Positions 15,787 through 24,468 of a stretch of DNA of 32,000 nt are shown piece after piece. This DNA is from Trichodesmium erythraeum IMS101 (lineage in GTDB: Bacteria; Cyanobacteriota; Cyanobacteriia; Cyanobacteriales; Microcoleaceae). Below the pieces are notes generated by a model that worked only from the letters and a program-made list of their open reading frames with translations, did not search any database and was not told the DNA's origin. Made by a program: the position numbers and the translations under genes. Position 1 is the first letter of the stretch; each line of letters starts with the position of its first letter. The stretch is taken from the NCBI RefSeq assembly GCF_000014265.1, contig NC_008312.1:3780001-3812000 (forward strand). Direction: 5' to 3'.

Positions 15787-15844
15787 TTCAGTTATTAATT
15801 ATTAGTTATAGGACTTACCCAGAGCTACCTTCTAAAAATAGAAA

Positions 15845-16072
15845 GGGAAGACTTGAGGGTTTATTTATTATAAATCTTGAGAATAGTTAGGATAAATACT
15901 GGGTGTAAAATAATAAATAGGGTGACTTTTATTTTTGGAGGAGTAATTTTAATAAAAAGGGAAGGCTTGAGAGTTTATTTATTGTAAGTCTTGAGAATAG
16001 TTACTATGAATACTGGTTGTGAAGTAAGAAATAGGGTGGCTTTTGTTTTTGGAGGAGTAAGTTTAAGTGTCT
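15845..16072. repeat. 2 x 114 bp tandem duplication in a divergent intergenic region
   Basis: Unit 1 starts with GGGAAGACTTGAGGGTTTATTTATTATAAATCTTGAGAATAGTTAGG at 15845. Unit 2 starts with GGGAAGGCTTGAGAGTTTATTTATTGTAAGTCTTGAGAATAGTTACT at 15959. They align along their whole length. Confidence 0.85.
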
Positions 16073-16220: not shown

Positions 16221-16706
16221 ATGAATTATTCAAAGGATAAGTTCTTATTATCTACGTTATTAGCTATCGGAGAGTTAGAGAATTCTTTAGGTTCTGAGGC
16301 TAAAGATGCTCTCTATGTTATTGCTGAACAACTATTTGTTAAACCTACTGCTTGGGAAACAGATATTGAGTCTAATTTAATGGGAATAATTAATGAAAAT
16401 TCGTCTTTAAGTACAATCTTTCAGGACTTTAAATCTAAGTTAGATGAGGTTGATAATATTTATGATTTTATTCCCACTCAAGAAGAATTAGAAGCAGTTA
16501 TTCCGGCGGCTGCTCTGAAACATACCCGTCCTATTATTAAGCCTAATTCTTCTGATCTAACAAGTGAAGAAGAAATTACTAATATGTCTATGCAGGTTTT
16601 ATCATCGCCAGAGCCATCAGAAATAGCAAAAGAAATAGTAAAAAAATCTAGCAAGTTGGAGCGGCTATTAAATTTGATTCGTCCAAATAGGTCGAAGAAT
16701 AAATAA
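16221..16706 (+). CDS. hypothetical protein (161 aa), orphan
   Basis: Clean ORF with a Shine-Dalgarno sequence (AAGGAG) 7 nt upstream of the ATG. The N-terminal half looks helical; the tail is Ser/Glu/Lys-rich and probably disordered. No family recognised. Confidence 0.65.
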   Translation: MNYSKDKFLLSTLLAIGELENSLGSEAKDALYVIAEQLFVKPTAWETDIESNLMGIINENSSLSTIFQDFKSKLDEVDNIYDFIPTQEELEAVIPAAALKHTRPIIKPNSSDLTSEEEITNMSMQVLSSPEPSEIAKEIVKKSSKLERLLNLIRPNRSKNK

Positions 16707-17170: not shown

Positions 17171-18571
17171 ATGCTCAATATTATTAATCCTACCATTGAC
17201 TTATTTCTCTATGACTTAAGAAATAGTCTGAGTGATAATGAAAAAAGTATAGGGGAAAAACGCGAATATTTTTATCAAAAGTTCGATGAAACTGTTCAGG
17301 AAAGGTTAAAAGAAGACGGAAAGGATCTCGACCAAAGGCAGAAGCAAGAGGTTGGATATATTCAACTTCTTAAGGATATTTATGCTCCTTTAGATCCTGA
17401 TACTCCTATAGAGAATGGTTATTACTATCCAGTACGGTTAGGAGATAGTTATGGACTGTTATTGGAGGTTGCTGAAGTTAATGGTTCTCAGGAAAAAACT
17501 CCAGAATATTTTGCTGAGTTAAAGGAAAGAATTCAACGAAAGTTAGGGGATAATAAAGCTACATTAGGTCAGACTTGGATGTTGTCTACTTACTTACCTA
17601 ATTTCTCGGAAATAACTTCAGCAGAAATAGAACAAATTGCTCAAGAGTCTTACAAAGCTATTTTTCCTAATACAAAAGAAGAAGTTAAGTTTCACAAGAA
17701 AGGTGAGTTTATTGGTGCTACAATTTTTGAGTATTCTGACAAGGGTTTTAAGGAGGAGGTAGTTAAGTTAGGAGAGAAAGAAAATTCTATTTTTGTGCAA
17801 AATAAACATGTTATTGTTGCTATTTATCCAGATAAAGAAAGTTTCGAGATTTTAAGTGAGTTATATACGGACTGGATGTCCTTATTATATTACCATCACA
17901 AAATTATTTGGGCTTATGGTCAAGGTTCTGTTTTAATCAATAAAGCTAAGAAAATGTTTGCTAAAGTTTATTCTATAACTGGGTCTATAGAAGAAAAGGT
18001 TACTGAAGGGAATGGTAAGGTTAATAGGTTGGAGGAAATTGGTTCTATTCTGAGGAAAGTTCAGGTTATTATGAATCAATACACGAATAATATGAATAAT
18101 CTTCAGTTTCAAAAGGTTACAATACAAATTAATTTAAGTAATTATGAGAAAAGATTAAAAACTATTTCTAAAAATGCTACTGAAAAGGTGCCTGGTTCTC
18201 GAACTAATATTGATTTTTTGGATGATTTTAGCAAGTTGGTTAAAGATAAGTATCTTTGGCAAATTAAAGAATATTTAGAAAGTTTTGAGTTAGGTTTGAG
18301 GTTATTAGAGAATAATATTAATGCTATTCGTAGCCAAACAGAAATAGAAAGGGCTAAGGTAGATCGCGATTTTAAAGGGTTAATTAGTGTGGTAGCTACA
18401 GGAGTTGCTATTGCTGGTTTAACAGGAGATAATGCGGCTACGGAATGTAAGTCTATTTTTAATGATAGGTTTTTTCTTTGTCAAAATACGTTTGTATATA
18501 ATATAACCTTAGTTTTCTTTGTTAGTTTGTTAATTTGGCTTTTGAGAAAGTATATATTAAAGCGATCGTAG
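17171..18571 (+). CDS. hypothetical coiled-coil protein with a C-terminal membrane anchor (466 aa)
   Basis: Long ORF. After about residue 250 comes a charged, heptad-like region. The C-terminus has hydrophobic segments LISVVATGVAIAGLTG and ITLVFFVSLLIWLL, followed by a basic RKYILKRS. No family recognised. Confidence 0.75.
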   Translation: MLNIINPTIDLFLYDLRNSLSDNEKSIGEKREYFYQKFDETVQERLKEDGKDLDQRQKQEVGYIQLLKDIYAPLDPDTPIENGYYYPVRLGDSYGLLLEVAEVNGSQEKTPEYFAELKERIQRKLGDNKATLGQTWMLSTYLPNFSEITSAEIEQIAQESYKAIFPNTKEEVKFHKKGEFIGATIFEYSDKGFKEEVVKLGEKENSIFVQNKHVIVAIYPDKESFEILSELYTDWMSLLYYHHKIIWAYGQGSVLINKAKKMFAKVYSITGSIEEKVTEGNGKVNRLEEIGSILRKVQVIMNQYTNNMNNLQFQKVTIQINLSNYEKRLKTISKNATEKVPGSRTNIDFLDDFSKLVKDKYLWQIKEYLESFELGLRLLENNINAIRSQTEIERAKVDRDFKGLISVVATGVAIAGLTGDNAATECKSIFNDRFFLCQNTFVYNITLVFFVSLLIWLLRKYILKRS

Positions 18572-18909: not shown

Positions 18910-19245
18910 CTAACCATAAATTCGTCTATTATTTTTCAGCTCCTCCAATACTTCAGAATTAAAGGGATTTTCTCCTTTTTTCAAAGTCTCTATCCAACCC
19001 TCAAGTTTTGCTTTTTCATCCTCATCTTTTATGGATTCTACTAATACTTGAAAATCCTCAACTGCTCCCTGATAATTTCCTGTTAATGCTCTTGCTAAAT
19101 CTTGATAATTCTGGATTTTTCCATCACAGGAAAGTATAACATCCCAATTATCCACATCTATTTCGACATCTGAATCTAATTTTTGTGCTTCATTATAAAG
19201 ATTAATTGCTTCTTCTATTTTTCCCTCTATTGCTAATTTTTTACC
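18910..19245 (-). other. in-frame continuation of the NLR-like ORF beyond its TAA stop (111 codons; includes the 81-aa ORF 18910-19155)
   Basis: 19248 minus 19155 is 93, a multiple of 3, so the frame is the same as ORF 19246-23691. Codons 19245 down to 19156 read GKKLAIEGKIEEAINLYNEAQKLDSDVEID with no stop. Confidence 0.65.
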
Positions 19246-22200
19246 TTATTTTAATTTGGCAGAAGCAGCAAGTTTATTTGCTACAAGTTGGGGGTCTGTT
19301 TCTCTAGTTTTTGTATCAGGATCGAGGTCAATTTCTGGTTCCAATTCTAGAGCTTTTTTGAAGATAGAAATTGCCTGTTTGATTTTCGGTTTTTCCCCTG
19401 TTTTTGCAAGATTTTTAGCTTCTGCAATTAAACTAGGATGAACGGGAATATTTTTGCAAGTTTTCTGATATGTCTCCAAGTCGCTGTTGATATACTGCTG
19501 CCATTCCTCTGCTGTTAAATTCCGACTGAGGCGGCGACAACCTTCTTGAATTAAGCCTTCTGGTGTTGCCCAATGGAGGCGGGCGGTATTGTCAGAACTT
19601 GCAGTAGCAATGGTTTTGCCGTCGGGGCTAAAGGCTACTGCAAATACCCAGTCCTGGTGGTTGAGAGTAGCTAATACATTGCCATTCTCAGTATCCCAGA
19701 GGCGGGCGGTTTTGTCAGAACTTGCAGTTGCAATGGTTTTGCCGTCGGGGCTAAAGGCTACTGCAAATACCCAGTCCTGGTGGTTGAGAGTAGCTAATAC
19801 ATTGCCATTCTCAGTATCCCAGAGGCGGGCGGTTTTGTCATCACTTGCAGTTGCAATGGTTTTGCCGTCGGGGCTAAAGGCTACTGCATTTACCCTGGAC
19901 TGGTGGTTGAGAGTAGCTAATACTTTGCCATTCTCAGTATCCCAGAGGCGGGCGGTTTTGTCAGAACTTGCAGTAGCAATGGTTTTGCCGTCGGGGCTAA
20001 AGGCTACTGCTATTACCGAGGACTGGTGGTTGAGAGTAGCTAATACATTGCCATTCTCAGTATCCCAGAGGCGGGCGGTTTTGTCAGAACTTGCAGTAGC
20101 AATGGTTTTGCCGTCGGGGCTAAAGGCTACTGCTATTACCGAGGACTGGTGGTTGAGAGTAGCTAATACATTGCCATTCTCAGTATCCCAGAGGCGGGCG
20201 GTTTTGTCAGAACTTGCAGTAGCAATGGTTTTGCCGTCGGGGCTAAAGGCTACTGCTCTTACCGTGTCCTGGTGGTTGAGAGTAGCTAATTCTTTGCCAT
20301 TCTCAGTATCCCAGAGGCGGGCGGTTTTGTCAGAACTTGCAGTTGCAATGGTTTTGCCGTCGGGGCTAAAGGCTACTGCATTTACCGAGGACTGGTGGTT
20401 GAGAGTAGCTAATTCTTTGCCATTCTCAGTATCCCAGAGGCGGGCGGTTTTGTCAGAACTTGCAGTTGCAATGGTTTTGCCGTCGGGGCTAAAGGCTACT
20501 GCATTTACCGAGGACTGGTGGTTGAGAGTAGCTAATACATTGCCATTCTCAGTATCCCAGAGGCGGGCGGTTTTGTCAGAACTTGCAGTTGCAATGGTTT
20601 TGCCGTCGGGGCTAAAGGCTACTGCATTTACCCAGGACTGGTGGTTGAGAGTAGCTAATTCTTTGCCATTCTCAGTATCCCAGAGGCGGGCGGTTTTGTC
20701 AGAACTTGCAGTTGCAATGGTTTTGCCGTCGGGGCTAAAGGCTACTGCATTTACCGAGGACTGGTGGTTGAGAGTAGCTAATTCTTTGCCATTCTCAGTA
20801 TCCCAGAGGCGGGCGGTTTTGTCAGAACTTGCAGTTGCAATGGTTTTGCCGTCGGGGCTAAAGGCTACTGCATTTACCGAGGACTGGTGGTTGAGAGTAG
20901 CTAATACATTGCCATTCTCAGTATCCCAGAGGCGGGCGGTTTTGTCAGAACTTGCAGTTGCAATGGTTTTGCCGTCGGGGCTAAAGGCTACTGCATTTAC
21001 CGAGGACTGGTGGTTGAGAGTAGCTAATTCTTTGCCATTCTCAGTATCCCAGAGGCGGGCGGTTTTGTCAGAACTTGCAGTAGCAATGGTTTTGCCGTCG
21101 GGGCTAAAGGCTACTGCATATACATCGGACTGGTGTTTGAGAGTAGCTAATTCTTTGCCATTCTCAGTATCCCAGAGGCGGGCGGTTTTGTCATAACTTG
21201 CAGTAGCAATGGTTTTGCCGTCGGGGCTAAAGGCTACTGCATATACATCGGACTGGTGTTTGAGAGTATAGAGATGCTTGGGTAGTTGACTTACTCCATT
21301 CCGTAGAGTTTGATCCAGTTCAAAAAGTAGGTCCGAGTCAACTTTCCCATAACGTTTTTTGATATCAAAGTATTGCTTCATTGACTCTATGCCCAGTAAT
21401 ACACCTTTATCAAGTAAAGATGGCTTTTGTCTGATCATTGAGTCAGAAAGCATTCCTAATATTCTTGCTGCTTGTTCCTCTACTTTTCTTTGCCGCTCCT
21501 TCTCTTTTTCTTCCTCACGAATTTTCAACTCCCGACTCGCCTCAATAAACTCATAAGCAACCCCATCCAATAAAGCCATTTCATCATATTTTTTCAGATA
21601 TTCTTCTGCCTTAGTTAACCGACCAGCTCGTAATAACAAACCCTCATTTTTTCCATCTTTTTTCCACTCAGCCGCATCAGCCTCAATTTTTCTTTCCACC
21701 GGCAAAGCTTCTTGATATTCTTCCACCCATTCCCTCAAAGTTTTCCAACTTCTAATTAAGTCCTCATGAACAATATCTAATAATATTCCTCCCTCGGAAT
21801 TATCCTTAGTAATTAACCGATTATTTGGATCAGCTAACCTATCACTAACTGCAGATAAAAGCTCTAAACTATGTCTTTTGTTAGGCAACTTTTCCAAAAT
21901 TACTCGCCGCCGAGTATCCGTTATTTTCCCCGAACTTATTTCCTTTTCCCCAGGCTGAACTAACTCTAAAAATATCCTCTTTGCCACCGACCTTTCCTCA
22001 TCATTCAAACTCTGAAAAACTGCATCAGCTCGCTTCGTCAAAGTACCCTTAATTCCACCCAACTTTGTATAAGTTGCCAGAGTTAAAAATTGACTTTTAT
22101 TCTCCCCTTGAGTCGCAAACTTCCACAGAGCATCCAAAGTATATTCCAGCAGAGGTAAACTACCAGGGTTACGCAAAAAATCTTCCCTTATTTGGGCAAT

Positions 22201-23691
22201 TAATCCCGGCTCAACTCCAACTCCAACTAATTCCGCAGGCTTTTTTATAACCTCATCTATTTCATCCTTTTCCAGAGGAGTTACTAATAATTGATGCCGC
22301 TTAATTTGATTAGCTAACCTTCCATATTCAGAACAGCGGTCAAGAAAATCAGCCCGCATTCCCAACACCAAACAAAACTTATCACCTCGTCTTTCCAGAA
22401 CATCCAAAAAACAATCAAAAAAATCCAGTCGTTCTTGTTCTTTTTCCTCGTCACCTTGACAGAGAGTAAAAACCTCTTCAAACTGGTCAATTATCATTAC
22501 CACTCTTTCAGCTTCAACTAGGTCAATAAACCTAATTAAATTATCAGTAAAATTATCAGTAAAATTCTCCTGTTTTTCCCCCTCTCTATTAATTGCTAGT
22601 TCCAAACTTTTCAGAGGAGAAAAAGTCGGAGTAAAAGGATTTAGATAACGCCATCTATCACTTCCAGATATTTTTTGCCCCTGCCTCAGTTGATATAACA
22701 AACCCGCCCGCAATAAAGAAGACTTTCCACTTCCAGAAGCCCCCAAAACCGCCACAAAATTATTAGTTCTAACTCGGTCAATTAACTCATCAGTTAAAAG
22801 AGTTCTGCCATGAAAAAAAACCGCATCATTTTCCTGCTGACGAAAATAAGATAAACCTCGATAAGGAGCCAAATTTTTCCAGCGTTCATCCTTATATTCA
22901 GTCAGAGTATTAGTAGTAAGAATTATCGCATCCCCAGAATTCTGAAACATCGGTGCTTGAGATGTACGAGACATCTTTTTGTTAATAAACTCTGCCAAAA
23001 CATAATTAGTTACCCAACCATCAACATAATTTTCTGGGTTTAAACCAGCCAGCAAATTATCAGTAAATAAACCATGTTTTCCATCCAATTTTTCTTCCGC
23101 AGTTTGAAAAGAACGAGAAGCAGTAATAAAACAACGACTAATTTTTTTTCCTTCAGTACCAGGGTTAGCTTCTCGGTCAAAATTCAAGAATTCACCACTA
23201 AAACAACAGTCTAACCAAACAATTTGTTCTTGAACCGGACTATCTTGTAAGAGCCTTTTTAACCAATTTAAAGAAATACCATAAACATTTTCCGAAAGGT
23301 GAGCCTCACTAGTAGCCAAAAAACCTTCTCGAATATCTCCCTTTTCATCCACATAACCATGTCCGGCAAAAAACAGTAAAGCCACATCAGGAGTTTCATT
23401 TTTTTTACGAGGTTTAAATAGATTAATAATTGCTTCTTGAAGCTCATTAATTTTCACCTTTCCCTTAGGGTCAAATCTTTCTGTACCTTCCTGATCATAG
23501 TTTTTTGGCAAACTTGGCAAACTTGGCAAACGTTGAATTCGAAACTTACCATATTTTTCCAAAATATTAGCAATAGCTTCAGCATCCTTAACAGCAGCCT
23601 TAAGGTTCAAATCTCCTAACTTTTTCTTTTTCAACAAAGGATAACGGTTAATTCCAACGACTAAAGCTTGCCTTAAATTTTTTTTATCCAT
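19246..23691 (-). CDS. NLR-like protein: N-terminal caspase/metacaspase (peptidase C14) + STAND P-loop NTPase + 14 WD40 repeats
   Basis: The caspase His/Cys dyad lies in LLFFAGHGY and IVWLDCCFSG. The STAND entry motif is APYRGLSYF..DAVFFHGR. Walker A is VLGASGSGKSSLLRAGL (nt 22720-22743) and Walker B is VVMIIDQFEEVF. A helical/coiled region follows, then 14 x 41-aa WD40 units (HQxxVxAVAFSPDGKTIATASxDKTARLWDTENGxxLATLN). Confidence 0.92.
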   Translation of the reverse strand: MDKKNLRQALVVGINRYPLLKKKKLGDLNLKAAVKDAEAIANILEKYGKFRIQRLPSLPSLPKNYDQEGTERFDPKGKVKINELQEAIINLFKPRKKNETPDVALLFFAGHGYVDEKGDIREGFLATSEAHLSENVYGISLNWLKRLLQDSPVQEQIVWLDCCFSGEFLNFDREANPGTEGKKISRCFITASRSFQTAEEKLDGKHGLFTDNLLAGLNPENYVDGWVTNYVLAEFINKKMSRTSQAPMFQNSGDAIILTTNTLTEYKDERWKNLAPYRGLSYFRQQENDAVFFHGRTLLTDELIDRVRTNNFVAVLGASGSGKSSLLRAGLLYQLRQGQKISGSDRWRYLNPFTPTFSPLKSLELAINREGEKQENFTDNFTDNLIRFIDLVEAERVVMIIDQFEEVFTLCQGDEEKEQERLDFFDCFLDVLERRGDKFCLVLGMRADFLDRCSEYGRLANQIKRHQLLVTPLEKDEIDEVIKKPAELVGVGVEPGLIAQIREDFLRNPGSLPLLEYTLDALWKFATQGENKSQFLTLATYTKLGGIKGTLTKRADAVFQSLNDEERSVAKRIFLELVQPGEKEISSGKITDTRRRVILEKLPNKRHSLELLSAVSDRLADPNNRLITKDNSEGGILLDIVHEDLIRSWKTLREWVEEYQEALPVERKIEADAAEWKKDGKNEGLLLRAGRLTKAEEYLKKYDEMALLDGVAYEFIEASRELKIREEEKEKERQRKVEEQAARILGMLSDSMIRQKPSLLDKGVLLGIESMKQYFDIKKRYGKVDSDLLFELDQTLRNGVSQLPKHLYTLKHQSDVYAVAFSPDGKTIATASYDKTARLWDTENGKELATLKHQSDVYAVAFSPDGKTIATASSDKTARLWDTENGKELATLNHQSSVNAVAFSPDGKTIATASSDKTARLWDTENGNVLATLNHQSSVNAVAFSPDGKTIATASSDKTARLWDTENGKELATLNHQSSVNAVAFSPDGKTIATASSDKTARLWDTENGKELATLNHQSWVNAVAFSPDGKTIATASSDKTARLWDTENGNVLATLNHQSSVNAVAFSPDGKTIATASSDKTARLWDTENGKELATLNHQSSVNAVAFSPDGKTIATASSDKTARLWDTENGKELATLNHQDTVRAVAFSPDGKTIATASSDKTARLWDTENGNVLATLNHQSSVIAVAFSPDGKTIATASSDKTARLWDTENGNVLATLNHQSSVIAVAFSPDGKTIATASSDKTARLWDTENGKVLATLNHQSRVNAVAFSPDGKTIATASDDKTARLWDTENGNVLATLNHQDWVFAVAFSPDGKTIATASSDKTARLWDTENGNVLATLNHQDWVFAVAFSPDGKTIATASSDNTARLHWATPEGLIQEGCRRLSRNLTAEEWQQYINSDLETYQKTCKNIPVHPSLIAEAKNLAKTGEKPKIKQAISIFKKALELEPEIDLDPDTKTRETDPQLVANKLAASAKLK
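19537..21258 (-). repeat. 14 tandem 123-bp coding units (WD40 blades) with near-identical nucleotide sequence
   Basis: The period of 123 was verified from GCCATTCTCAG at 19681, 19804, 19927 and 20050. Units 19927-20049 and 20050-20172 read identically. Units 19681-19803 and 19804-19926 differ at 8 nt, all within three short patches. Confidence 0.95.
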
Positions 23692-23724: not shown

Positions 23725-24468
23725 TTAGAGTTGAGAAAGAGGAGAAATTAAAACAATGCCCCGTGTTTTTTTAGATGTTTTATCGATAGTATTCGTTGAT
23801 GCCCAGAGAGTCTTTGTATCCACCCAAACGGGAGGGTACTTGTAACGAGATACATCTAGAACCAAAAACTGGTCACTTTCCTCATTATAAGCAGCAATAG
23901 GAGAAATATGACCCCCTCGTTTTTGTCCGATAGCCTGGCCTAGATAATTAATTAACACAAAGTTGTTATCATTCACCAAATTCTCGCGAATGAGCCCTCG
24001 AAACTGCTCCAAACTAATATCGCTACCATAGAAAGTTTTGACTTCAACACTATAGGTAGCAATGAAGTCCGACAGCTGTGCCAGAGTCATTCCCCGTCTA
24101 GTAATAACACTACGGGGGATAACTTCCTCAGTTTTCTCATTAAAAATATTATCCTGGGTAAAATAACGTTGTGGCCAGGGAGAAGGAGCAGTAGAAGGAA
24201 CTTCTAGAGCATTAAGTACCATAACCGCACTCGCCACACCACAAAATGCTCCATTGACTTGGGTAACGAACTGACTCATCAGAGGAATGTAGTCTGTTTG
24301 AGCTTTGCTGGTTTGGAGTAGAGTTTGGCCTTCAGGGGAAAGGAGAGAAGTCAGGTTTTCCGATAGAGGTAGGCGTTGAGCTTGGAGAGGAACAGCAGTA
24401 ACAACCAAGCTCAGGGGCAGAAAGAAAGAAATAGACCAAAAATTCTTAAAAAAAGTCATGAGAGTCAT
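23725..24468 (-). CDS. phytochelatin synthase-like papain-fold protein (NsPCS-type) with signal peptide
   Basis: Catalytic Cys context is QVNGAFCGVASAVMVLNAL. The His/Asp context is GGHISPIAAYNEESDQFLVLDVSRYKYPPVWV. There is a hydrophobic N-terminal leader, FFLPLSLVVTAVPLQAQ. Confidence 0.85.
   Translation of the reverse strand: MTLMTFFKNFWSISFFLPLSLVVTAVPLQAQRLPLSENLTSLLSPEGQTLLQTSKAQTDYIPLMSQFVTQVNGAFCGVASAVMVLNALEVPSTAPSPWPQRYFTQDNIFNEKTEEVIPRSVITRRGMTLAQLSDFIATYSVEVKTFYGSDISLEQFRGLIRENLVNDNNFVLINYLGQAIGQKRGGHISPIAAYNEESDQFLVLDVSRYKYPPVWVDTKTLWASTNTIDKTSKKTRGIVLISPLSQL

Follow-up and report, generated by a model that had tools for sequence, protein, structure and literature searches.

A WD40 repeat array in a caspase-nSTAND1 protein of Trichodesmium erythraeum combines a near-identical scaffold with diversified residues at the predicted binding face

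The window analysed here, a stretch of 32,000 nucleotides from the genome of Trichodesmium erythraeum IMS101 (NC_008312.1, positions 3,780,001 to 3,812,000), contains on its minus strand the gene Tery_2471, whose product carries a caspase-like domain, an nSTAND1 NTPase and an array of 14 nearly identical WD40 units. All positions are numbered from the first nucleotide of the window. We consider it probable, at roughly 70%, that this array serves an NLR-like protein for ligand sensing, and that in it recombination homogenises the scaffold of the units and selection diversifies the residues of the top face, resulting in a switch that can be re-targeted. A preliminary description of the window had proposed the combination of a homogenised scaffold and a diversified binding surface in a re-targetable sensor, and this interpretation is supported by the analyses reported below at the level of sequence evolution. 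With regard to function, we infer that Tery_2471 acts as a ligand-gated, re-targetable death or defence switch.

The array extends over positions 19543-21264 of the minus strand (amino acids 810-1383) and matches Pfam PF00400 in 14 stretches (E = 2.5e-164). Tandem Repeats Finder (TRF) detected a single array at 19576-21268 with a period of 123 nucleotides, 13.8 copies, 97% matches, no indels and a score of 3008. A 35-nucleotide core (GCAGTAGCCTTTAGCCCCGACGGCAAAACCATTGC) occurs exactly 14 times at a spacing of 123 nucleotides and was absent from each of 100 shuffled sequences. The units consist of 41 codons (123 nucleotides) in frame, unit k beginning at position 21264-123(k-1). Thirteen units are full length, and unit 14 departs from the repeat after codon 30, which marks the end of the array. 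The 14 near-identical WD40 units of 123 bp reported in the preliminary description were thus recovered by TRF, by the spacing of the core and by the in-frame unit table.

Among the 13 full units, 14 of the 123 nucleotide columns vary, and they are confined to 8 codons (permutation P = 9e-5). Seven of these change the amino acid: codons 2 (K/N), 5 (S/D), 6 (S/D/W/T/R), 8 (N/Y/R/I/F), 24 (S/Y/D), 37 (K/N) and 38 (E/V). The eighth, codon 20, is GCA or GCT (8 versus 6 units) and is, as initially stated, the sole synonymous difference. The four patches in which the differences had been placed, HQxxVx, SxD, D[KN]T and G[KN][EV], were all found, but the variable K/N codon that directly precedes HQ, with K in units 1-2, had been overlooked. 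The order of variants given for the first patch (SDVY twice, SSVN three times, SWVN, SSVN twice, DTVR, SSVI twice, SRVN, DWVF twice) was exact. Pairwise identity among the 13 full units averages 95.5% for nucleotides and 91.8% for amino acids, with an amino acid minimum of 0.829, and therefore lies within the range of internal identity that defines both the highly repetitive (HR) WD40 proteins (at least 0.7; Hu et al. 2017) and repeats of high internal conservation (HIC, 80-100%; Dyrka et al. 2014).

Two adjacent stretches, 19927-20049 and 20050-20172, had been reported as identical. This is correct, but identity is not limited to two units, as units 4, 5, 7 and 8 are fully identical to one another (20275-20397, 20398-20520, 20644-20766 and 20767-20889 in the register of the preliminary description). 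The sharing of variants between neighbours holds for units 4 and 5 and for units 7 and 8, whereas units 1 and 2 differ at SYD/SSD and units 13 and 14 match in the first patch only. The recent unit duplication that had been suspected is visible as a block of three units (369 nucleotides, minus strand) present in two copies, units 3-5 at 20650-21018 and units 6-8 at 20281-20649. A single nucleotide distinguishes the two copies (TCG to TGG, in unit 6), and the longest exact self-repeats of the array measure 364 nucleotides at offset 369 and 210 nucleotides at offset 123.

Top-face hotspots of WD40 propellers, R1, R1-2 and D-1, can be defined from the sequence (Wu et al. 2012). Strand a begins with the motif (V/L/I)-R1-R2-(V/L/I), the first hydrophobic residue of which is followed by R1; R1-2 precedes R1 by two residues, and D-1 comes immediately before the tetrad Asp. 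In the unit L-N-H-Q-S-S-V-N-A-V...S-S-D-K, position 8 corresponds to R1, position 6 to R1-2 and position 24 to D-1. These three positions are among the most variable ones in the window and rank as the top three when the Trichodesmium arrays are pooled; the five positions of highest entropy are then 24, 6, 8, 5 and 26, the last of which is variable in the sister arrays. The mapping in three dimensions is based on this published rule and on the secondary structure of an AlphaFold2 model (amino acids 780-1415, single sequence, pLDDT 79.9, pTM 0.60). The model predicts strand a at positions 7-12, strand b at 18-23, strand c at 27-33 and strand d from 38 to position 2 of the next unit. According to this prediction, the d-a loop contains positions 5-6 and the b-c turn positions 24 and 26. 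Position 8 is located where strand a begins and position 2 where strand d ends, and positions 37-38 fall at the c-d turn and the beginning of strand d. By standard convention, the d-a and b-c loops make up the top face of a WD40 propeller, to which the HQxxVx, SxD and D[KN]T patches would therefore belong, as had been proposed for the first two. The G[KN][EV] patch is predicted to lie not there but at the bottom or outer rim.

The array aligns one-to-one with the 14-blade structure 2YMU of the PDB (E = 1.5e-233), which is also its best Foldseek match (58% identity), and Apaf-1 is among its further PDB matches. The array is therefore likely to fold as two seven-bladed propellers. Its membership of the WD40 beta-propellers is also indicated by the PF00400 matches and by the four-strand periodicity of the model. 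Five of the 13 full units (3, 4, 5, 7 and 8) carry the small residues S, S, N and S at all four main hotspots. These "blank" units are mostly located in the first presumed propeller and are almost missing from the sister arrays of other species, and residues with a bulky or charged side chain (W, R, F, I, D, Y) concentrate in units 1-2 and 9-14.

For the analysis of diversity the units were treated as sequences, codons 2, 5, 6, 8, 24, 26, 37 and 38 being classified as hypervariable and the other 33 codons as scaffold. For the 13 units of the window, the nonsynonymous diversity (piN) of the hypervariable codons was 0.243, and the synonymous diversity (piS) and piN of the scaffold were 0.021 and 0. 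For 33 in-register units from other Trichodesmium arrays, the corresponding values were 0.438, 0.072 and 0.034. Both components of the proposed pattern, a homogenised scaffold (piN 0) and diversified contact residues (piN 0.24-0.44), were thus observed, and the per-codon check that had been suggested earlier gave clustered variation with a hypervariable piN 6-11 times the scaffold piS. Relaxed constraint alone is inadequate to explain this pattern, because replacement diversity at the hypervariable codons exceeds silent diversity in the scaffold by this factor. The hypervariable codons of the window require a minimum of 18 nucleotide steps versus one synonymous change in the scaffold (binomial P = 5.6e-6), and some of the hotspot codon states are 2-3 bases apart (TCG/GAT, AAT/TTT and TCC/GAC). 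This site-specific excess of nonsynonymous differences supports the view that selection favours amino acid change at the predicted top-face residues.

The array might alternatively be a young propeller that arose by recent amplification of one blade, its differences being neutral changes at tolerated positions, in which case neither diversifying selection nor re-targeting would be involved. The nearest structural and sequence relative, the WRAP protein of Nostoc punctiforme, has been described as recently amplified, the four identical units and the block duplication indicate very recent expansion, and many of the IMS101 units share small hotspot residues. Neutral change, however, cannot exceed the synonymous rate as the hotspot codons do, with their at least 18 steps, and codons that differ by 2-3 nucleotides stand against a scaffold in which 24 of 25 A columns and all C, G and T columns are invariant. 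In addition, the scaffold and the variable positions recur across Trichodesmium species and loci, so that the array is not the product of a one-off recent event. We therefore regard neutral amplification as an unlikely explanation and retain selection at the top face on a recombining scaffold.

Evidence for the recombining scaffold came from sister arrays. When genome contigs were scanned with the 35-nucleotide core, other Trichodesmium species were returned, IMS101 itself not being among the returns. A matching scaffold was found in the Trichodesmium metagenome-assembled genomes (MAGs) MAG_R02 (locus L001), MAG_R03 (L002 and L005) and MAG_R04 (L004), and a more diverged array in Dapis (L003). 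Outside the array, the synonymous difference (pS) between the window and L002 is 0.34 in the NTPase; in the linker it is 0.58 relative to L002 and 0.70 relative to L001, and in the C-terminal tail 0.16 relative to L001 and 0.18 relative to L002. In contrast, there are 0 fixed scaffold differences between any two of the arrays of the window, L001, L002 and L005, the last three being contigs of short-read MAGs, with odd units of 114-132 nucleotides in L001 and L002. The third-position distance between the window array and those of L001 and L002 is 0.043, compared to 0.051-0.054 within the latter, and over all pairs of arrays it ranges from 0.043 to 0.094, versus a flanking pS of 0.16-0.70. Unequal crossing-over and gene conversion among the 123-nucleotide units, apparently also between loci, would keep the scaffold near-identical, including its synonymous sites, and the same events would alter the number and order of the units.

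The array also differs from its surroundings in the GC content at third codon positions (GC3), which is 0.48 in the array, 0.28 in the remainder of Tery_2471 and 0.22-0.36 in the neighbouring genes. In L001-L003, L005, L006, L008, L010 and L013 the GC3 of the array is likewise above that of the rest of the open reading frame (ORF), by 0.07-0.29. Such an excess could result from GC-biased gene conversion, or the unit might be of foreign origin. Tentatively, the Trichodesmium genes of the caspase-nSTAND1-WD40 type may share one pool of exchangeable WD40 cassettes, with a scaffold that has not diverged across loci, is enriched in GC3 by biased conversion and carries hotspots that turn over between strains. 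Units would then move between paralogous arrays, cytoplasmic and possibly membrane-anchored, and perhaps between species.

Between their NTPase and array, the products of L002 (around amino acid 517) and L001 (around amino acid 49) and the proteins P0122 and P0002 have a segment of moderate hydrophobicity, ILGVSLVLMTGLFGYAWMQ. Its mean over a 19-residue Kyte-Doolittle window is 1.43-1.48, the maximum for Tery_2471 being 0.96. Since these paralogues carry a hydrophobic segment that Tery_2471 lacks, one WD40 scaffold may serve both cytoplasmic and membrane-anchored receptors.

Other searches for related arrays returned more distant sequences. Distant members of the family in metagenomes have arrays with units of 120-123 nucleotides and 93-98% matches, often at contig ends. 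The exact 35-nucleotide scaffold gave 0 matches in a scan of metagenome contigs, and a protein-guided scan of metagenomes yielded distant relatives only (at most 59% identity). A protein search with the array as query gave only WD40 proteins of 32-55% identity and at most 1005 amino acids, none of them named Trichodesmium, and a search for IMS101 paralogues with the C-terminal tail returned only short fragments at contig ends.

Differences between strains were likewise concentrated at the hotspots. The seven other members of the 90% cluster of Tery_2471 are all partial proteins of 425-858 amino acids, because short-read assemblies break at the array, and the comparison therefore covers their first or last units only. 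A T. erythraeum MAG is identical to the window over the 809 residues upstream of the array and its first 25 residues. Protein P0125, with 96.9% identity ahead of the array, departs from Tery_2471 only at positions 2, 5 and 8 of the first unit. In P0123, which is 94.3% identical before the array, 10 of the 10 aligned hypervariable positions differ, versus 5.7% of the residues before the array, with three further changes at unit positions 33-35. Fragments of the array end from other samples, one of them from T. erythraeum 21-75, differ at positions 5, 6, 8, 24 and 26. Close orthologues (94-97% identical upstream) thus differ in their first units mainly at hotspot positions. The comparison of strains suggested in the preliminary description thus showed differences at the hotspots, in the first or last units of partial proteins.

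These partial proteins raise the question of whether the reference array is itself collapsed, expanded or mis-ordered, all the more as identical units of 123 nucleotides are difficult to place. An apparent orthologue in MAG_R04 (L004 1456-1700, P0015) has the linker of Tery_2471 and an implausible array of just two units, which is unable to form a propeller and most likely is a collapsed short-read assembly. The window, however, is part of the finished 7.75-Mb chromosome of IMS101, and the longest exact self-repeats (364 and 210 nucleotides) are below the length of a Sanger read. Moreover, the number of 14 units suits two seven-bladed propellers, as in 2YMU, the reading frame of 1722 nucleotides is intact, and the independent T. 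erythraeum MAG agrees exactly as far as it extends into the array. The per-site pattern would survive even a wrong order of the units. We consider it very unlikely that the reference array is an assembly artefact.

Tery_2471 was identified in the ORF listing as a minus-strand ORF of 1481 amino acids (19246-23691), and its product was named by look-up of the exact sequence (ABG51681.1, WP_011612045.1, UniProt Q111Z3; "peptidase C14, caspase catalytic subunit p20"). The N-terminal caspase-like effector (Peptidase_C14; 22939-23673, minus strand, amino acids 7-251) matches Pfam PF00656 (E = 1e-13). It contains the motifs FFAGHGY (23353-23373) and WLDCCFSG (23194-23217), both on the minus strand, in which AGHG and DCCFSG provide the putative His-Cys catalytic dyad. 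The Pfam match and the dyad motifs place the protein among the orthocaspases of the Peptidase C14 family. The nSTAND1 NTPase (21643-22866, minus strand, amino acids 276-683) matches PF20703 with E = 4.1e-110 over profile positions 1-378 of 379, that is, as a whole module, and includes a Walker A motif (GASGSGKSS, 22717-22743, minus strand) and a Walker B motif (VVMIIDQFEE, 22474-22503, minus strand), in agreement with membership of the nSTAND1 family. A linker without hydrophobic segment follows (21265-21642, minus strand, amino acids 684-809), the end of which, HLYTL, provides the strand preceding unit 1. With the WD40 units at amino acids 810-1383, the order of domains corresponds to the NLR-like effector-STAND-repeat layout in one polypeptide.

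Downstream of the array, the C-terminal tail (19246-19542, minus strand, amino acids 1384-1481 and the TAA stop codon) is conserved beside the arrays of paralogues (HWATPEGLIQE.CRRLSRNLTAEEWQQYI), and it also looks duplicated internally. Three-frame translation revealed an in-frame continuation past the TAA codon of about 110 codons (18910-19245, minus strand), which includes an ORF of 81 amino acids (18910-19155). This continuation beyond the stop at 19246-19248 shows homology to the C-terminus of the L002 paralogue (...EAINLYNEAQKLDSDVEIDVDNW...ARALTGNYQGAVEDFQVLV...). It is probably the cut-off remnant of a longer C-terminal domain, and the IMS101 allele of Tery_2471 appears to be truncated by a nonsense codon.

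In the mechanism that we propose, selection for change would act at the top-face positions 5, 6 and 8 (R1-3, R1-2 and R1) and 24 and 26 (D-1 and D+1), and the shuffling of blades that are already diversified would quickly produce new binding surfaces. By analogy with Apaf-1, HET-E/D and the antiviral STAND proteins of bacteria, the propellers would be bound by a ligand, which might be a protein of phage origin or some other protein related to non-self or stress. Binding would trigger NTP-dependent oligomerisation, by which the caspase-like domains would meet and become activated, leading to cell death or growth arrest.

A mechanism of a different kind, in which a diversity-generating retroelement (DGR) or another site-directed mutator rewrites the hotspot codons, was also considered. 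The nSTAND1 proteins of other multicellular bacteria have DGR-diversified sensors, and work on alleles of DGR target genes in T. erythraeum populations is cited in the same study (Doré et al. 2024). Variation in the units is concentrated at codon positions 1-2, codon 5 being NNC in 38 of 46 units, codon 6 NNG in 37 of 46 and codon 24 NNT in 39 of 46. However, no reverse transcriptase was found among the 15 ORFs of the window that were scanned against Pfam (of 18 ORFs of at least 100 amino acids), and the window holds no template-like copy of the unit outside the array. The adenine pattern of a DGR target is absent as well, since no variation was seen in 24 of the 25 adenine columns of the scaffold, and the consensus of the variable columns includes C, T and G besides A. 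Fourteen separately varied units are also unlike a single pair of template and variable repeat, and the DGR sensors described are C-type-lectin domains, not WD40 (Doré et al. 2024). The array was therefore not classified as a DGR target on the basis of the window, and targeted hypermutation appears a most improbable source of the variation.

The proposed combination of concerted evolution and surface diversification is best known from the HNWD proteins of Podospora anserina (HET-E, HET-D, HET-R and the NWD paralogues), to which the preliminary description had likened the array. They share with Tery_2471 the layout of effector, STAND NTPase and WD40 repeats, units of 41-42 amino acids that concerted evolution keeps at an internal identity of 80-100%, diversifying selection at hypervariable sites of the interaction surface, a sensor of two propellers and the failure of short-read assemblies on the arrays. 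The classification of the fungal HET-E/D repeats uses positions 10, 11, 12, 14, 30, 32 and 39 of a 42-amino acid unit that starts with strand d. With an offset of 6, in a register derived here from this convention and the consensus, fungal positions 11, 12, 14, 30 and 32 correspond to positions 5, 6, 8, 24 and 26 of the Trichodesmium unit. The evolutionary regime thus appears to be shared with the fungal HET/NACHT family, at what appear to be the same structural positions.

The likeness concerns the mode of evolution and does not extend to membership of the fungal family, as Tery_2471 has an N-terminal Peptidase_C14 domain, an NTPase whose best match is nSTAND1 and no HET domain, in place of the HET effector and NACHT domain of the fungal proteins. 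Its host is bacterial and therefore without meiosis or repeat-induced point mutation. Podospora repeats cluster by gene, whereas the Trichodesmium loci are without fixed differences, subject to the quality of their assembly. Finally, HET-E/D have a known ligand and phenotype, whereas Tery_2471 is a putative sensor.

The best relative in structure and sequence is WRAP of Nostoc punctiforme (2YMU), which is also cyanobacterial, is located C-terminal to a STAND ATPase and has 14 near-identical blades of 41 amino acids, the most variable residue of which follows a conserved Val and is thus R1. Propellers are re-amplified continually, WRAP being one example (Pereira and Lupas), and WRAP was described as a very recent amplification with few differences, in a paper that treats rapid turnover and not selection at hotspots. 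A caspase domain is not described for its protein, and its gene is coupled to a TIR-STAND gene. The Trichodesmium hotspots, in contrast, are far more diverse, and the array is common to several species. The array also resembles the HR WD40 proteins, which have an internal identity of at least 0.7 (0.918 in Tery_2471), are enriched in cyanobacteria and fungi, have many repeats and multiple propellers, and keep diverse hotspot sites while the remainder is conserved (Hu et al. 2017, Sci Rep 7:10585). In the part of this work available to us, Q111Z3, the Tery_2471 protein, is included in the general prokaryotic WD40 catalogue; the survey was carried out at the protein level, without nucleotide, between-locus, between-strain or selection analysis.

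With the Apaf-1 apoptosome, Tery_2471 shares a STAND NTPase that is followed by WD40 units, in Apaf-1 as two propellers and in Tery_2471 probably so. A protein ligand that binds to the propellers of Apaf-1 permits its oligomerisation and the activation of caspase. Its caspase domain is fused, however, whereas Apaf-1 recruits the caspase through a CARD adaptor, and the Apaf-1 blades are diverged, without concerted evolution. The DGR-diversified nSTAND1/STAND sensors resemble Tery_2471 in their NTPase family, in their fast-diversifying C-terminal sensor and as putative conflict systems of a multicellular bacterium, but in them a reverse transcriptase rewrites a C-type-lectin fold (Doré et al. 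2024, PNAS), whereas the WD40 array of Tery_2471 would change through point substitutions and the shuffling of units. Dyrka et al. proposed, without a test, that highly conserved repeats of bacterial NLRs may follow the fungal pattern of evolution. The Tery_2471 array is thus a bacterial instance, at the nucleotide level, of a phenomenon that has already been described, and the gene too has been catalogued. Beyond the literature found are the absence of locus-specific scaffold divergence, the GC3 excess of the array and the restriction of orthologue differences to the hotspots, for which confirmation by long reads is needed.

Several observations weigh against the array being a selected, re-targetable sensor. 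The between-unit comparison of piN and piS on which the 6-11-fold excess is based ignores recombination and is not a formal dN/dS test. The "blank" units look more like the recent expansion of one unit than like a finely tuned surface. Chimeric or collapsed MAG assemblies may inflate the lack of fixed differences between loci, and the IMS101 allele could be partly decayed, its C-terminal extension being cut by an in-frame stop. No experiment ties Tery_2471 to a ligand, to oligomerisation or to cell death, and no experimental paper on nSTAND1-caspase proteins was found in the literature. The neighbouring genes are housekeeping genes (TGT, CobS, ThiC, a HAD hydrolase and an SdhA-like flavoprotein) and do not form a defence island. 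Tery_2471 as such matches no defence-system model of PADLOC (Avs, bNACHT and others), the only matches, HEAT-ARM_XIII, mad8, mad3 and AriA, being driven by the repeats or limited to the P-loop.

The last two points, the housekeeping neighbourhood and the lack of a PADLOC defence match, would also fit a protein in which the propellers form a constitutive scaffold or a substrate-recruiting module of a housekeeping orthocaspase. Such an enzyme would be involved in stress proteolysis or in programmed cell death under nutrient stress and not in non-self sensing, and the variability of its units would reflect relaxed constraint or several endogenous partners. The listing of Tery_2471 among the Trichodesmium orthocaspases, with WD40 regarded as a protein-interaction module (PMC7475262), points in the same direction. 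Endogenous partners, however, predict conserved contacts, whereas the contacts are precisely what differs most between orthologues that are otherwise 94-97% identical. In addition, the effector-STAND-repeat layout is that of ligand-gated oligomerising switches. A housekeeping role of this kind is therefore rather improbable, and a diversified ligand sensor is the reading that we prefer.

Several features near the array are of a different nature. An ORF of 535 amino acids on the plus strand (19589-21196), the translation of which is itself a perfect 41-amino acid repeat, probably arises because one antisense frame of the unit happens to be free of stops, and should not be regarded as a gene. 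Upstream of Tery_2471, a phytochelatin-synthase-like gene (23725-24468, minus strand; PF05023, E = 6.8e-69) ends 34 nucleotides before its start, and the N-terminus of the encoded protein has an apparent signal sequence as judged by eye. The two-gene system of EACC1 and caspase (Kaur et al. 2020) was considered for this pair. The upstream gene is phytochelatin-synthase-like and does not encode a small EACC1 membrane protein, and no link to this system was established. A non-coding tandem repeat with a period of 114 nucleotides, 2.0 copies and 87% matches (15837-16066) is located in AT-rich intergenic DNA. It precedes two ORFs of the plus strand (16221-16706 and 17171-18571), which are uncharacterised and have no Pfam match.

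Trichodesmium is a major contributor to nitrogen fixation in the ocean, and its cell death has been reported to be accompanied by caspase-like activity. If Tery_2471 and its paralogues are ligand-gated death switches that are re-targeted by repeat shuffling, part of this cell death would be immune or allorecognition-like and not purely physiological. Should the arrays in addition draw on a common pool of cassettes, they would represent a bacterial receptor repertoire based on recombination, and at least one of the "metacaspases" that have been invoked for the cell death at the end of blooms would be gated by a fast-evolving sensor of non-self (for example phage or kin) and not by nutrient stress alone. 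Metagenomic surveys can be expected to undercount and mis-describe this class of receptors systematically, because every short-read assembly examined truncates or collapses the gene. The locus provides a bacterial test case for the idea, so far shown in fungi only and merely suggested for bacteria, that high repeat identity is both cause and consequence of rapid sensor diversification.

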